A DNA stretch of 64,000 bases from a phage, in the sequence record NC_102531.1; one strand, 5' to 3'. Made by a program: the position numbers and the translations under genes. The notes under the pieces are model-generated. The model was not told the DNA's origin, made no database searches, and worked only from the letters and a program-made list of their open reading frames with translations. Shown here piece after piece: positions 5,569 to 61,617 of the stretch. Every line of letters begins with the position of its first letter. Within the stretch, counting starts at the first letter, position 1.

Positions 5569-5597
5569 TTGACATCTGTTGAGACAATTGATACGAT
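5569..5597 (+). promoter_or_regulatory. sigma70-like promoter for plus-strand operon
   Basis: TTGACA 5569..5574, 17-nt spacer, TACGAT 5592..5597. Lies inside the TTG-initiated N-terminal extension of ORF 5563. Confidence 0.45.
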
Positions 5598-5628: not shown

Positions 5629-6606
5629 ATGAATCTTGAAAAATATTATACACCAGAAGAGTTAGAGCGCTTGCTCAAAAAATATAGACGCAAACAGAAT
5701 AACGCACGGAAACGAGATATAGAGTTCGACCTGTCATGGGAAGAATACCTCCTATTTGGTAAAAAACTTTTAGGAGATGGAGTATGCGACTATACCCTTA
5801 TACCTTTTGACATGCACACAGATGAAAACGGGCTGGGAAATCCTTTCTACCCATCTCTGGAGCGGATAGATGATGAAGGTCCTTATGCGGTTGATAACTG
5901 TTGTGTGGTGGGATTGAGATGCAACTCTCTAAAGGACTGTCTGGTAGATAAAAAGACTGCAGTCTTGATTAAAGACGAAACTGATCGAAAAATTGTCCAG
6001 CAGATGATGCTCCACCTGAGCGAAGAGCGTATGGAGAAATTGAAAGGTGATTATACTTTTGAAGATTTCATCTTGCAATATGGAACGGAAGAGGATAAAC
6101 TAGCACTCTTTGACGAAGAAGAGGAGGAAGATATGCTACCGATGTCTAAAGTTACTTATCGTGCACCCAAGAAGCACATTTCCGACATTGTAAACGAGCC
6201 TATCACAGAAGAGATTGAAGAAATGACGCAACAGGTGCATGAAGAGGAAAAAGAGACTCAGGAGGTCGAAGAGGAGCTTACAGAAGAGGTTCCTGCACTA
6301 CCTGATGATGTTGAGATTGCCAAAGCTTACACTTTCTATTGTCAAACGTTCTACGATGTAGGTATGAAAGTTGATCTGTCGTTCAGCCAATTTAAGAGTT
6401 CGTATATTCGCAAATGCTGTGCTTTAACTGGTGAACGTCTTGAAGCTGGACTTAAACCTCTGTTGGTGACCGACTGGAATAAAGGTTTCACTAAAGGAAA
6501 CTTTATGGTAGTATCTCCAATTATGGAGAAAGCTATGACAGATCTTATGAAGACCACCCGCATGACAATGACCGAGTTGGCAGGTATTTTCAAACACGTT
6601 AAATAA
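5629..6606 (+). CDS. HNH-like (His-Me finger) domain protein with acidic linker
   Basis: ORF track 5563..6606 (TTG start); ATG 5629 lies downstream of the promoter. Motifs CDY...DMH...SLERID...NCCVVGLRCNSLK; second half starts MSKVTYRA inside the 29-bp repeat. Confidence 0.4.
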   Translation: MNLEKYYTPEELERLLKKYRRKQNNARKRDIEFDLSWEEYLLFGKKLLGDGVCDYTLIPFDMHTDENGLGNPFYPSLERIDDEGPYAVDNCCVVGLRCNSLKDCLVDKKTAVLIKDETDRKIVQQMMLHLSEERMEKLKGDYTFEDFILQYGTEEDKLALFDEEEEEDMLPMSKVTYRAPKKHISDIVNEPITEEIEEMTQQVHEEEKETQEVEEELTEEVPALPDDVEIAKAYTFYCQTFYDVGMKVDLSFSQFKSSYIRKCCALTGERLEAGLKPLLVTDWNKGFTKGNFMVVSPIMEKAMTDLMKTTRMTMTELAGIFKHVK

Positions 6607-6639
6607 TAACAGGGGCCAATGGCCCCTTCTGGAGTTTTA

Positions 6640-8100
6640 ATGGATAGCAGAAGTTCAGAAATCATTGCCTCGCAGAAAGATGATGCCCTGAGAATGTTGC
6701 AGGCTGCACGTATGTATCTCCTTGAAAAGCTGCCGTTCTATGGCACACTACTGTCAGGGTTGCAGTTCGTAGAAAACCACACATGGTGCTCCACCATGGC
6801 AACCGACCATAAACGCATCTATTACAGTCCTGAGTTCATTATGGGATTGGCTGATGAACGCAAGGCTATTCTTAAGGCTTCTCTAACTGACGAGCAGTTT
6901 GAGATGGCTGAAGTTTTCTATTCCCCAAAATCTGTGAAAGAGGTGGCCTTCCTTCTGTCACATGAGGTGGGGCATATTATCTGTGATCACCTAGTCCGTG
7001 GTAAAAGCTTTGAGCCGGAACTGTTCAATATTGCTTGTGATCACGTTATCAACACAGGCCTTGTGGTTGACTTTAGCAAACCTCCTTGTGTTTTCTTCCC
7101 GAAGGGGAAAAGCACTACGTTCGTGAAAGGTAAGCCTTTTGGCTTCTTAGCCAGCTGCTACTGCGACATGAAGTTTCATGGATGGATTGCTGAGAACGTT
7201 TATGCAGTTCTTGATAAGCAAAGAGATCAGAATAACGGTAAAAGTAAGAACGGTAAAGGTGAGAACTCTCAAAGTGATAAGCGACAAACCGATGATCACA
7301 TGAGTGGGAACGGTGGCACCAATGATAATCTTGGAAAGGCTATGGGGTATGATCAGCCACAACCTGTAATCAGCCAATCTGATAAAGATCAGGCCATGCA
7401 GGACTCTGGTGATATGCTGGAGGCAGCAATGCAAGCGTCCGGAGGCCGTTGCCCTGAGGCGGTGCGTGAGTTTGTCAAGAACAGAGGTAAACCTGTAATC
7501 AACTATATAGACATCATTAAGCAACGCATGTTGTCTAAAAGAAAGGCCGAACTGACCTACAGAAAACCTGGTCGCCGATCTGGGTCTTTGACCAGCACAA
7601 TGCGAAAAGTTGGGGCTATAAACAAGAACCAGCACGTTATTGTTCCTGGTCGTAATCCGGAAAACACTATAGATATTGTGGTGGCTTTAGACGTTTCTGG
7701 CTCGATCTCTCAAAGAACTTTAAAGAAAATGTTCAATGAAATCACCGGATTGTGCAATCTGTATAAAGAGTTTAAGGTTACAATGTTCTGTTGGTCAACT
7801 GAGGTTGGAGAGGTTAAAGTATACACTCGCGGCAACATAGACGAGATGATCAACTATGAGGTCCACTCAACATGGGGCACAACAGCTGCTTGCGTGTTCG
7901 AGTATCTGGATGCCAACATACCTAATGCAAAAGATGTCATCGTCCTGACCGACCTATACTTTGAGCATAACTTTGAACAAAAGGTTGTTGACAACAAGTG
8001 GAAAAAGTACGATACTCTATGGGTCCTCACTGAGGGGTATAATAAAAATTATATCCCGAGCTTTGGGAAAACTGTGGAATTAATCGAGTACGCTAAGTAA
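6640..8100 (+). CDS. vWA-domain protein with N-terminal HExxH putative metallopeptidase domain (DUF2201-like)
   Basis: ORF track 6619..8100; ATG 6640 has SD GGAG 5 nt upstream. N-terminal PFYG...TMATDH...LSHEVGHIICDH...FNIACDHVIN; C-terminal MIDAS-like DVSGSIS. Long Asn/Gly/Ser/Asp-rich linker. Confidence 0.6.
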   Translation: MDSRSSEIIASQKDDALRMLQAARMYLLEKLPFYGTLLSGLQFVENHTWCSTMATDHKRIYYSPEFIMGLADERKAILKASLTDEQFEMAEVFYSPKSVKEVAFLLSHEVGHIICDHLVRGKSFEPELFNIACDHVINTGLVVDFSKPPCVFFPKGKSTTFVKGKPFGFLASCYCDMKFHGWIAENVYAVLDKQRDQNNGKSKNGKGENSQSDKRQTDDHMSGNGGTNDNLGKAMGYDQPQPVISQSDKDQAMQDSGDMLEAAMQASGGRCPEAVREFVKNRGKPVINYIDIIKQRMLSKRKAELTYRKPGRRSGSLTSTMRKVGAINKNQHVIVPGRNPENTIDIVVALDVSGSISQRTLKKMFNEITGLCNLYKEFKVTMFCWSTEVGEVKVYTRGNIDEMINYEVHSTWGTTAACVFEYLDANIPNAKDVIVLTDLYFEHNFEQKVVDNKWKKYDTLWVLTEGYNKNYIPSFGKTVELIEYAK

Positions 8101-8115
8101 GAGAGGAGGTTATTT

Positions 8116-8379
8116 ATGGCAACAGAGTTAAAATTTGCATCAAACCGTAAAACTAAGAAGTATCTGTCCTCAGTAGCTCCAGGCACTGTGGTGATGTTTG
8201 TTGATGAACTTGGGGATGTGAATACAGCACTTGTTGTAAAATCACATCCTGCAAACATATATGTTGGGGTATTTGACCTGTTCAGAAAGGTGTTTGTAGA
8301 ACTACCTCACAGTTTGGTTGTTACAGAAATGGATGCCTGCATAGAAATTCTTGGCGAAGTTATGGTGGAGGAACAATAA
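8116..8379 (+). CDS. small protein, paralog 1 of a tandem four-gene family
   Basis: 87 aa; SD GAGGAGG upstream; shares MAT..F.S..K.KK...GTVV...VK...FDL...LP...VTE.D..I.ILGE pattern with the next gene. Confidence 0.6.
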   Translation: MATELKFASNRKTKKYLSSVAPGTVVMFVDELGDVNTALVVKSHPANIYVGVFDLFRKVFVELPHSLVVTEMDACIEILGEVMVEEQ

Positions 8380-8642
8380 TGGCTACCAGCATTGTATTCA
8401 ATTCTAAGGTGAAGAACAAAAAGCGTGCAGACAGCTTTCCGTGTGGGACCGTGGTAAGTTGCGACGGAGACGGCATTCAAAACATAGTTATGATTGTCAA
8501 AACAGGAGAACATTGTGTGTGGGGGTTCGATTTAGAAAATAATGAGTTGTACGATCTGCCACCAAACATGAAAGTTACAGAGCTTGACACCAAAATTACC
8601 ATCCTTGGAGAGACAAGCTATTCAAAAGAAGGAGGAGAATAA
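8379..8642 (+). CDS. small protein, paralog 2 of tandem family
   Basis: 87 aa; TAATG stop/start overlap with paralog 1; SD GGAGGAA upstream. Confidence 0.6.
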   Translation: MATSIVFNSKVKNKKRADSFPCGTVVSCDGDGIQNIVMIVKTGEHCVWGFDLENNELYDLPPNMKVTELDTKITILGETSYSKEGGE

Positions 8643-8905
8643 TGACCACAAAAATCACTATCGCAGAACCGAAAGCTAACACTCAACCTATCGAAAAGTT
8701 TAAGTGCGGTGAGGTGGTAACATTCACACCAGATAATGAAGATGCTAAGATTTTCGCAATGGTCACAGCTGAGTGGATGTGTGACAACACCACACAGGTT
8801 CTGCGTTTTGACACCTATCTTACCGATGAAATCAGGAACGACAAGATTGTGACTGGTGTGGATACTGAGATTGTTTTCTACAAGAGCTTTTTAGAGGGTT
8901 TCTGA
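8642..8905 (+). CDS. small protein, paralog 3 of tandem family (more diverged)
   Basis: 87 aa; TAATG overlap; KFKCGEVVTF and RFDTYLTDEI...VTGVDTEIVF align to paralogs 1 and 2. Confidence 0.55.
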   Translation: MTTKITIAEPKANTQPIEKFKCGEVVTFTPDNEDAKIFAMVTAEWMCDNTTQVLRFDTYLTDEIRNDKIVTGVDTEIVFYKSFLEGF

Positions 8906-8906
8906 T

Positions 8907-9140
8907 ATGGCAAAAATTCGTAAATTATCTAGTAATCAGGTTGTGAAAGACTTTGAATCTGGAGAGATTCTTTATGTTCGTGATGCAGATGACGAAGGTG
9001 AAGATCTCGTTATGTTGGTGGGGCACGCTGAGGACGGATGCATCCAAGCTGTTTTTCTTGAAACAGCTATGGTGCACTGGATAGAGCTGGACCTGAAAGC
9101 ACGAAAACCTAAAGCAGAAATCCTGATTTACGAAGATTAA
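8907..9140 (+). CDS. small protein, paralog 4 of tandem family (diverged, 77 aa)
   Basis: Starts 2 nt after paralog 3; GEILYV...LVMLVGH...AVFLE...WIELDLK follows the same pattern. Confidence 0.45.
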   Translation: MAKIRKLSSNQVVKDFESGEILYVRDADDEGEDLVMLVGHAEDGCIQAVFLETAMVHWIELDLKARKPKAEILIYED

Positions 9141-9155: not shown

Positions 9156-9605
9156 GTGTTGAGCAAACGTGAATGCGACAGCATTAGCCTGAATTCTTAT
9201 AAGAAACAATGGTTTGGGGTGGAAGTTTGCCGACTGCGGCTAGGCTCCTACCTGAACTTCGTTTATTATGAGAGCGACAGTCGTATCGTTTCTTATGAAG
9301 TGTTCTACACTAAGAACACATTCGAACTGCGCCGTAAAGTAGAGGGAGGGAGAACTACCGCCCAGAATAATTGGGAAACTATTCTGCCTCCAGATGTTAT
9401 AGGAAGCCCCCTGAATGTATCTGAAGATGAAAATCTTATGGTTCATGCTATGATGGGACTTGACAGCTTAGAGCTGGCGATCTATGATATGTCCATCGAA
9501 GCAGTTAAGCTGGACTACATCGAAAACACTTTAGAGGAAGGTATCAAGAAGTTTCTCAGTGAGAAATTAAAAGACCACTTTCATAAGGAGCTATATCTGT
9601 TATGA
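9156..9605 (+). CDS. hypothetical protein (149 aa)
   Basis: GTG start with SD AAGGAGAGAG upstream; no recognisable domain. Confidence 0.5.
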   Translation: MLSKRECDSISLNSYKKQWFGVEVCRLRLGSYLNFVYYESDSRIVSYEVFYTKNTFELRRKVEGGRTTAQNNWETILPPDVIGSPLNVSEDENLMVHAMMGLDSLELAIYDMSIEAVKLDYIENTLEEGIKKFLSEKLKDHFHKELYLL

Positions 9606-9847
9606 AGACCCGTAAAGAACGTAACAAAATTTTACCTGGAGCTCTCGAACACCTGATGAAGTGCAGATCTATTTGGCACTCTGCCAAGGAAGGGCAGAAG
9701 GTGGTTGTGGTTAGTGACAATGCCAACCCGTTTGGAGATTATACCACCATGATGGCCCCATATGTCCGTGATGGCGTTGTAGAAGTGGTCCCTTACAACG
9801 GTTTGCATGAACGGCACTTTGAAAGCACTTTGCTAGTGGAGCTATAG
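9602..9847 (+). CDS. hypothetical protein (81 aa)
   Basis: ORF track; ATGA overlap with upstream stop. Confidence 0.45.
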   Translation: MKTRKERNKILPGALEHLMKCRSIWHSAKEGQKVVVVSDNANPFGDYTTMMAPYVRDGVVEVVPYNGLHERHFESTLLVEL

Positions 9848-61347: not shown

Positions 61348-61617
61348 TTATCGAGGCACTCGGTGGATGATTCTAACAGTAACTGCGTTTTCATTCATCA
61401 AGTATGCATCTACATCTCTGTAAATATAAAACTTCTGCTCACTATCAACAACACAAGCTACCGCCCCTTCAGAGTTGTCTTCAAAAAAGACCACCACTGC
61501 ATCGCAGCTGAGTTCATGATATGACTCTCGAAGATTTACAGACAGAGGATTGAAATCGTCACGAAAATCTACGGTATGGGTTGGATTTACACGCTCTACA
61601 ATTTTAAGTGTATACAT
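61348..61617 (-). CDS. hypothetical protein (89 aa)
   Basis: ORF track; between tRNA cluster and spanins; no TM segment. Confidence 0.45.
   Translation of the reverse strand: MYTLKIVERVNPTHTVDFRDDFNPLSVNLRESYHELSCDAVVVFFEDNSEGAVACVVDSEQKFYIYRDVDAYLMNENAVTVRIIHRVPR

Follow-up and report, generated by a model that had tools for sequence, protein, structure and literature searches.

The locus and its genes

The 64,000-nucleotide stretch of phage DNA recorded as NC_102531.1, to which we refer in full as the window, carries at 8116-9140 an array of four small genes, here called w1 to w4, which is the subject of this analysis. The array is made up of four back-to-back open reading frames (ORFs) of 87, 87, 87 and 77 amino acids (aa) on the + strand, recognizable both in the ORF list and in the raw sequence, and placed exactly where a first-pass annotation, made from the letters alone, had described paralogous genes with overlapping stop and start codons. 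Between positions 6600 and 10500 the window shares 99.8% identity with Escherichia phage inoa, and with more than 100 further rV5-like myoviruses of the genus Vequintavirus it shares 97-99%; on the standard rV5/Murica genome map the array lies at about 9.2-10.3 kb. All four genes coincide with coding sequences annotated as 'hypothetical protein' in Murica and in more than 100 phage records. They are listed here with their isoelectric points (pI) and the expectation values (E) of their PHROG assignments; the A-family is the family of w1, w2 and their alleles:

8116-8379, + strand: w1, 87 aa, pI 5.0, A-family member (w1 lineage), phrog_10698 (E 7.6e-43)
8379-8642, + strand: w2, 87 aa, pI 4.9, A-family member (w2 lineage), predicted six-stranded SH3-like beta-barrel, phrog_10698 (E 4.8e-41)
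8642-8905, + strand: w3, 87 aa, pI 4.5, remote paralogue, phrog_12861 (E 9e-62)
8907-9140, + strand: w4, 77 aa, pI 4.6, net charge about -8, most remote paralogue, phrog_12046 (E 5e-55)

A Shine-Dalgarno-like motif of the GGAGG type precedes the start of each gene by 6-11 nucleotides (nt). The overlap of stop and start codons is present at the w1/w2 and w2/w3 junctions, where both codons share one base in TAATG (8377-8381 and 8640-8644), and is missing at the w3/w4 junction, where a 1-nt spacer separates them (TGAtATG). Junction alignments show that the TAATG before w3 is retained in rV5 and in the far more distant lineage L007. As judged from the sequence, there is strong support for a tight translational linkage of the array genes, through overlap or 1-nt gap and through a Shine-Dalgarno motif inside the upstream gene, coupling itself being putative.

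Four diverged copies of one gene

Only w1 and w2 can be aligned directly (39% identity across 82 residues, E 1e-12 by BLASTP); every other pair among w1-w4 gave zero BLASTP alignments, and pairwise identity among the array copies is 15-40%. The three PHROG families to which the proteins belong are all labelled 'unknown function', and the hidden Markov model (HMM) of phrog_10698 accepts only w1 and w2 as members, since w3 gives a weak full-length match (E 0.078) and w4 none.

Profile methods make the relationship visible. An A-family profile (A3), which is an alignment of diverged alleles of the w1/w2 family, aligns with the w3 family end to end over 79 columns (hhalign probability 91%, E 1e-6). 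In HMM searches covering every window ORF of 40 aa or more (410 in all), the same profile finds w3 (E 5.6e-5, 17.9 bits) and ranks w4 at the top of the other 407 ORFs, with a non-significant E of 0.41; when w3 is added to the profile, w4 is recovered (E 1.5e-5, 19.7 bits). Reverse searches from the w3 and w4 families place the remaining array members at the top, and w4 is the best-ranked non-member ORF in every search. Shuffles preserving composition, 5000 for each protein, never attained these scores: none of the 5000 versions of w3 reached 17.9 bits (maximum 10.8) and none of those of w4 reached 19.7 bits (maximum 11.4). For the single-family HMM links to w4 the empirical shuffle p is 0.003-0.006. 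Direct hhalign comparisons of w4 with the A-family and with w3 are not significant (E 0.03-0.05, probability about 1%), and therefore the membership of w4 is transitive. The core common to the four proteins in the final alignment comprises an N-terminal strand, the motif F-x-x-G-[TE]-[VI]-[VL], an acidic loop and alternating hydrophobic strands.

As one family of four, every member is statistically tied to the rest by sequence, w4 via the transitive link. This evidence gives firm support to a reading of w1-w4 as old, diverged tandem duplicates of one gene, in a family that would count five lineages together with the gp014-type gene described below. The pattern noticed in the first pass, with similarity falling along the array, is thus genuine, but its detection takes profiles (w1-w2 by BLASTP, w3 by hhalign and HMM, w4 after iteration); the pairwise and profile alignments proposed at that stage as a check give significant values (1e-12, 1e-6 and 1.5e-5), and tandem duplication followed by divergence is supported as the origin of the array.

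An ORF on the - strand at 61348-61617 was considered as a fifth paralogue and rejected, as it was never significant with the array HMMs (E 0.04-0.6). It encodes an acidic, beta-rich protein of 89 aa which recurs just under significance and may be another small beta-barrel protein.

Predicted structure

The AlphaFold2 model of w2, for which all A-family alleles and w3 were aligned, has six strands, with a predicted local distance difference test (pLDDT) of 78 and a predicted template modelling score (pTM) of 0.64. The model of w4 is all-beta (pLDDT 70, pTM 0.58) and was obtained from its own near-identical family alone, which kept the test independent. Structure prediction, another check suggested in the first pass, thus yields two all-beta models with strands in register: their strand order is equal and the register matches the sequence alignment, in a comparison made by order and register rather than by superposition, at pLDDT 70-78. 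In the BFVD library the w2 model retrieves the w1-type protein of phage nomo (template modelling score (TM) 0.86) and the gp014-type protein of Pr121LW; the w4-type protein of phage naam comes at rank 14 of the entire library, with probability 1.0. The w4 model retrieves a gp014-type protein at rank 5.

The predicted fold shows the five-stranded, strongly bent antiparallel barrel by which SH3-like small beta-barrels are recognized, and all five lineages (w1, w2, gp014-type, w3 and w4) are acidic (pI 4.5-5.0, net charge -4 to -8). The prediction of the array proteins as small acidic SH3-like beta-barrels of about 80 residues, lacking a catalytic motif, is firmly supported. They differ from the known SH3-like barrels (Tudor, KOW, the ribosomal uL2 barrel and EF-P domain I) in having no Pfam membership, KOW motif or evident aromatic cage, in carrying one more strand at the N-terminus and a long one at the C-terminus, and in being stand-alone and acidic, whereas those barrels are domains of larger proteins. 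The Sm/Hfq-like arrangement, an N-terminal alpha-helix followed by the Sm1/Sm2 barrel and assembled in a ring, is not seen in them. The w2 model also resembles the uncharacterized barrel N4 gp21 and those of the Kuraviruses SU7 and 172-1, of LAMP, of Klebsiella phage Seu621 and of Erwinia jumbo phages (Foldseek probability 1.0, TM 0.5-0.74, lengths 70-90 aa), with 10-20% sequence identity, at which homology is not demonstrable; as all these barrels are of unassigned function, the resemblance yields no mechanism.

The structural data also bear on the possibility that w4, and perhaps w3, are unrelated small beta-barrel proteins of like size whose profile matches reflect drift or convergence. The failure of BLASTP with w3 and w4, the hhalign result for w4, the three separate PHROG families and the very common occurrence of SH3-like barrels among small phage proteins would all agree with it. 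Common descent is favoured by the full-length hhalign match of w3, by the score of w4 far above its shuffles, by its position as top non-member of the 410 ORFs in every search direction, by predicted strands in register with BFVD cross-matches at ranks 14 and 5, and by the adjacency and common orientation of the genes. On balance we regard independent origin as improbable.

A different role would follow if the proteins were host-takeover factors and not counter-defence proteins, that is, Tudor/KOW-like barrels docking on RNA polymerase, the ribosome or the RNA-processing machinery and cooperating with the Srd-like protein of the same operon. Tudor/KOW-like fold matches suggest binding to RNA polymerase or ribosome; at the sequence level, Tudor and KOW Pfam models gave no match to the array proteins at E<=1, and the only PDB matches, all sub-threshold, were to the KOW region of eS4 (E 1.2) and to SelB (E 0.17). 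We consider this explanation rather unlikely.

The first slot is an exchangeable cassette

Copy-number comparison across related phages, which had also been recommended, shows that the first slot of the array is polymorphic in both copy number and allele. Among 117 records, 43 hold w1 and w2, and the other 74 have in their place a single gp014-type gene of 84-89 aa; the single-gene carriers include the type phage rV5 (gp014), FV3, Pr121LW and the BASEL phage Bas54. The segment that differs is the following:

8131-8630, + strand: swappable cassette (w1+w2), 500 base pairs (bp) against about 230 bp in rV5, FV3, Pr121LW and Bas54, from blastn breakpoints and junction alignments

The flanks of the cassette are 92-97% identical in nucleotide sequence to rV5, FV3 and Pr121LW. 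On the left, identity extends up to 8130, 15 nt into w1; on the right it resumes at 8631, in the ribosome-binding site of w3. The gp014-type gene is about 40% identical to w1 and to w2 alike, and the three lineages are 35-44% identical to each other. An origin of gp014 as a w1/w2 chimera by unequal crossing-over is refuted by the even identity along its length, which makes it a third old lineage. A further, gp014-like allele (P0043) is found alone, in another gene context, on a metagenomic contig that carries neither w3 nor w4.

Both states occur within one species of the International Committee on Taxonomy of Viruses (Murica and Pr121LW) and in BASEL phages with the same nearest relative (AlexBoehm and MaxTheCat), and therefore the cassette is exchanged by recombination. 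In sum, sequence comparison strongly supports a first slot that is a cassette, holding either w1+w2 or one gp014-type gene, swapped by recombination at conserved gene ends.

The duplication itself is old, because the w1 and w2 lineages both occur in a lineage with saturated synonymous divergence. A recent amplification does not hold: the copies are too far apart, and the duplication that gave w1 and w2 is older than a lineage with flanking proteins only 37-82% identical to those of the window. An 'accordion' of near-identical copies varying in number is ruled out by the 15-40% identity and by the nature of the one-versus-two state, which is an allelic cassette swap.

A conserved w3-w4 block

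The diverged lineage L005-L007, represented by contigs from E. coli assemblies and read archives, carries the same four-gene array. Protein identity between the window and this lineage is 37-82% for the neighbours, 58% for the w1-like and 64% for the w2-like protein, and rises to 97.7% for w3 and 94.8% for w4; w3 is 98-100% conserved across the genus. By the Nei-Gojobori method, w3 compared with L007 has a synonymous divergence (dS) of 0.62 and a nonsynonymous divergence (dN) of 0.015 (ratio 0.024), and w4 has dS 0.51 and dN 0.022 (ratio 0.044); for w1, dN/dS is about 0.2. Synonymous sites are saturated in most flanking genes in the same comparison. A sliding window delimits the conserved segment, which spans w3 and w4 and reaches ~95 nt into the next gene:

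~8640-~9250, + strand: high-identity patch, 88-96% nucleotide identity to L007, flanks ~55-75%

Since dS in the patch is 0.5-0.6 and the flanks are saturated, the w3-w4 block has been exchanged between lineages later than its surroundings. Its left edge is the right edge of the cassette, so that the w2/w3 junction (8631-8642, ribosome-binding site and TAATG) is a recurrent breakpoint, used by two independent recombination events: the cassette swap with respect to rV5 and the patch with respect to L007. The substitution pattern strongly supports w3 and w4 as a fixed pair, under strong purifying selection since the exchange. The array genes as a whole are firmly supported as real genes under selective constraint.

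The joint movement of w3 and w4 as one recombination patch also fits a model in which the paralogues are subunits of one hetero-oligomeric complex, with the gp014-type gene or w1+w2 as alternative exchangeable subunits. Equal size, tight coupling and conserved gene order agree with such a complex, which would account for stoichiometric, translationally coupled synthesis. Small beta-barrels often oligomerise, as in the Sm/Hfq rings. We hold this model to be quite improbable.

Distribution

Among 50,697 phage records searched by tblastn, each of the four proteins is found in about 117 Vequintavirus records only. A search of 5.8 billion proteins gave 23, 6 and 13 clusters, mostly on phage-sized contigs, and when 1.84 billion representatives were scanned exhaustively by HMMER with the A-family profile, only three true representatives were recovered; three other matches, to ankyrin, leucine-rich repeat and other repeat proteins, were dismissed as multi-stretch artefacts. 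Sequence searches of Pfam, NCBIfam, PADLOC and PDB with the array proteins returned nothing above noise. Homology to characterised anti-defence inhibitors was not found in these general libraries, which include no dedicated anti-defence HMM library. Homologues with a housekeeping function, the outcome that the first-pass annotation regarded as contrary to its reading, were absent from Pfam, NCBIfam, PADLOC, PDB and PHROG.

With the DUF2201 gene, which precedes the array, as synteny anchor, the locus was compared in six other Vequintavirinae phages: Seunavirus GAP31, Mydovirus Mydo, Henunavirus Hena1, Certrevirus phiTE, Avunavirus 19-1-2 and phage A7_1. The array is absent from the anchor in all six, and no ORF there matches the array profiles. 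Directly after DUF2201, GAP31, Mydo and 19-1-2 have a gene of 128-144 aa which resembles gp017, the gene that follows the array in rV5, in size and sequence; in Hena1, A7_1 and phiTE the gene in that position is of similar size. A weak match of the w3 profile in GAP31 was rejected, since the ORF concerned is unannotated, out of frame and of low complexity and overlaps GAP31_042. The comparisons strongly support a restriction of the family to the genus Vequintavirus.

A gene of 86-88 aa is conserved between the Srd-like gene and DUF2201 in other Vequintavirinae (GAP31_032, Mydo_041, Hena1 gp133 and 19-1-2 peg.3) and has an SH3-like sequence pattern, F-K-V-G-D-x-V ... V-L-F ... W-G-F-R. We do not claim it as a homologue of the array, the hhalign comparison with the array profile giving E 0.006 and a probability of 6%. 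Its positions are:

L011 3668-3928, L012 3697-3957, L013 3687-3953 and L016 3692-3955: conserved gene of 86-88 aa

Sixteen GenBank records named 'Campylobacter phage' (MG0656xx), with Campylobacter jejuni as host, are 98-100% identical to E. coli rV5-like phages in this region, and their host labels look unreliable.

Published functional data

Transposon insertions across Bas54 (MaxBurger, MZ501093), which carries the three-gene form, were mapped in the HIDEN-SEQ preprint (10.1101/2025.11.20.689424). On K-12 all three genes are classified as Non-essential: insertions hit 17 of 17 TA sites in bas54_0054 (gp014-type), 13 of 15 in bas54_0053 (w3) and 12 of 12 in bas54_0052 (w4). The dispensability of the array on E. 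coli K-12 is strongly supported by these counts; together with its limitation to one genus, it agrees with the accessory character first attributed to the locus. The proteins do not appear to have been detected in particles, no tryptic peptides of gp14, gp15 or gp16 being present in the mass spectrometry tables of the rV5 virion proteome. In the accessory-gene screen of Silas et al., rV5-like phages are not mentioned.

The HIDEN-SEQ preprint also contains the only conditional screen available, K-12 against a clinical isolate whose identity is ambiguous: the sheet 'resampling_K-12_vs_CFE303' lists input files '311', and a second sheet repeats the same numbers. In that isolate insertions are depleted in the DUF2201 gene (log2 fold change (log2FC) -2.20, q 0.009) and, significantly, in the gene of the adjacent MoxR ATPase (log2FC -7.23), which is needed against the predicted defence system DS-28 (10.1101/2025.11.20.689424). 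The neighbourhood of the array therefore holds counter-defence functions, and the data suggest a MoxR-VWA pair acting against DS-28. An anti-defence role for the array itself would be plausible.

One form such a role could take is that of acidic DNA-mimic anti-restriction proteins of the Ocr/ArdA type, in line with the small size, the net charge of -4 to -8 and the probable early expression of the proteins. A pI of 4.5-5.0 is, however, merely moderately acidic, and the predicted compact beta-barrel is not an elongated helical mimic. Moreover, the BASEL paper describes Vequintavirinae as exceptionally susceptible to restriction-modification systems and apparently devoid of protection from them (PMC8594841), which argues against this role. 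We disfavour it as very improbable.

Operon and neighbouring genes

The array forms the third to sixth genes of a + strand operon. A consensus scan places a candidate promoter about 30 nt 5' of the first gene, together with two other sites, and the neighbouring features are as follows:

5569-5597, + strand: candidate sigma-70-type promoter (TTGACA, 17 nt, TG-n-TACGAT)
5555-5527, - strand: divergent promoter-like site
7988-8016: weaker promoter-like site
5629-6606, + strand: Srd-like 'anti-sigma factor'/HNH-like protein (rV5 gp011 homologue), first operon gene, start according to the Murica annotation
6611-6627: perfect GC-rich palindrome AGGGGCCAATGGCCCCT between the gp011 and gp012 homologues, annotated as a terminator in Murica
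6619-8100, + strand: DUF2201 putative metallopeptidase with VWA-like domain (rV5 gp012 homologue), directly 5' of the array (Pfam DUF2201_N 5.7e-28, DUF2201 7e-11)
9156-9605, + strand: rV5 gp017 homologue, 149 aa, GTG start, next operon gene, outside the array family

The operon location given in the first pass stands, the operon being headed by the candidate promoter within a bidirectional promoter region. In fact, rV5 has been described with bidirectional promoters and a transcription unit of genes 11-26, in agreement with the promoters of the window (PMC3606486); that paper makes no mention of paralogy among gp14-16. Early expression of the array would follow from this organization.

The gp011 homologue matches phrog_3118, 'decoy of host sigma70' and 'Srd anti-sigma factor'. 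The palindrome that follows it lacks a clear T-run on the + strand and has a better one on the minus strand; attenuation or processing of the operon transcript could occur here, 5' of the array. Labels of the DUF2201 gene conflict across records ('HNH endonuclease', 'putative anti-sigma factor', 'metallopeptidase'), and the rV5 RefSeq record splits it (rV5 L002 757-2218) into gp012 and gp013, probably because of a frameshift or sequencing error. The gp017 homologue carries a 'tail protein' label via phrog_6790 in RefSeq records. Its place in the early operon and its Non-essential class in Bas54 (30 of 33 TA sites) make this label doubtful; in the clinical isolate its depletion is borderline (log2FC -2.28, p 0.028, q 0.195; 10.1101/2025.11.20.689424). 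The rV5 gp018 homologue (9602-9847, 81 aa) is absent from L005-L007, which have a gap of about 250 bp there, a further presence/absence polymorphism in the same operon.

A possible function for the array

Taken as a whole, the explanation that we favour, an old tandem-duplicated family of acidic beta-barrels acting as early stoichiometric binders, has in our judgement an even chance of being correct. Its mechanistic part taken alone, early stoichiometric protein binders with a variable slot and a fixed pair, is more tentative, and we would not put it at even chances; it draws on size, fold, charge, context and evolutionary pattern. The proteins would be made early, from an operon dependent on host RNA polymerase in which the Srd-like factor and the DUF2201/VWA protein are encoded too, and would act stoichiometrically as non-enzymatic binders or inhibitors of host proteins, with one target for each paralogue. 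The target followed by the variable slot would differ from one host strain to another and would most likely be a component of immunity or a competing mobile element; w3 and w4 would bind targets conserved among hosts.

Several observations weigh against this explanation. The link of w4 rests on an iterated profile; the models are of moderate confidence (pLDDT 70-78) and built on very shallow alignments, and the SH3-like fold is generic and says little of the target. In the clinical isolate none of the changes is significant for the gp014-type gene (log2FC +0.46), w3 (log2FC +0.33) or w4 (log2FC -1.32, p 0.13) (10.1101/2025.11.20.689424). Moreover, in the part of the BASEL study that presents them, Vequintaviruses appear alike against the 11 defence systems tested, with either cassette (PMC8594841), and therefore no cassette phenotype is known.

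A combination of the binder and complex models can also be envisaged, namely a modular battery on one barrel scaffold, in which fixed w3/w4 and the exchangeable cassette form, or act beside, one complex, and the swappable subunit retargets it to other host immunity or takeover targets. We see this as a long shot; if it were true, the cassette would contribute to setting the range of E. coli strains open to a Vequintavirus.

Relation to known systems and significance

Early-region clusters of small, fast-evolving accessory or counter-defence genes are known in virulent phages, such as anti-CRISPR loci and the T4 internal-protein and dmd/tifA regions. The array is like them in the small size of its genes, its place in an early operon, its dispensability in the laboratory, its narrow range, its presence/absence and allelic polymorphism and the anti-defence MoxR ATPase nearby. 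It is unlike them in that its copies are ancient (15-40% identity) and w3 and w4 are among the most conserved genes of the region. Small paralogous ORFan clusters are commonplace in phage early regions, and the array breaks no rule. The genes were already known as hypothetical ORFs; new are their grouping into one family, the assignment of a fold, the cassette with its three alleles and the distinction between a fast and a frozen half.

rV5-like phages belong to the E. coli myoviruses that are isolated most often and count as candidates for use in therapy and biocontrol; most of their early genes are unassigned. Three 'unknown' families that PHROGs treats as unrelated (phrog_10698, phrog_12861 and phrog_12046) are here reduced to one small beta-barrel family with the lineages w1, w2, gp014-type, w3 and w4, in which the hyper-conserved w3/w4 are separated from a recombining cassette of three old alleles. 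The array is cheap to study, since the proteins are tiny and dispensable on K-12, natural one- and two-gene variants exist in BASEL, and a Bas54 transposon library is available. If the cassette does set sensitivity to host defence, the family would offer a new inhibitor scaffold; otherwise, the result is a cleaner annotation of these phages.

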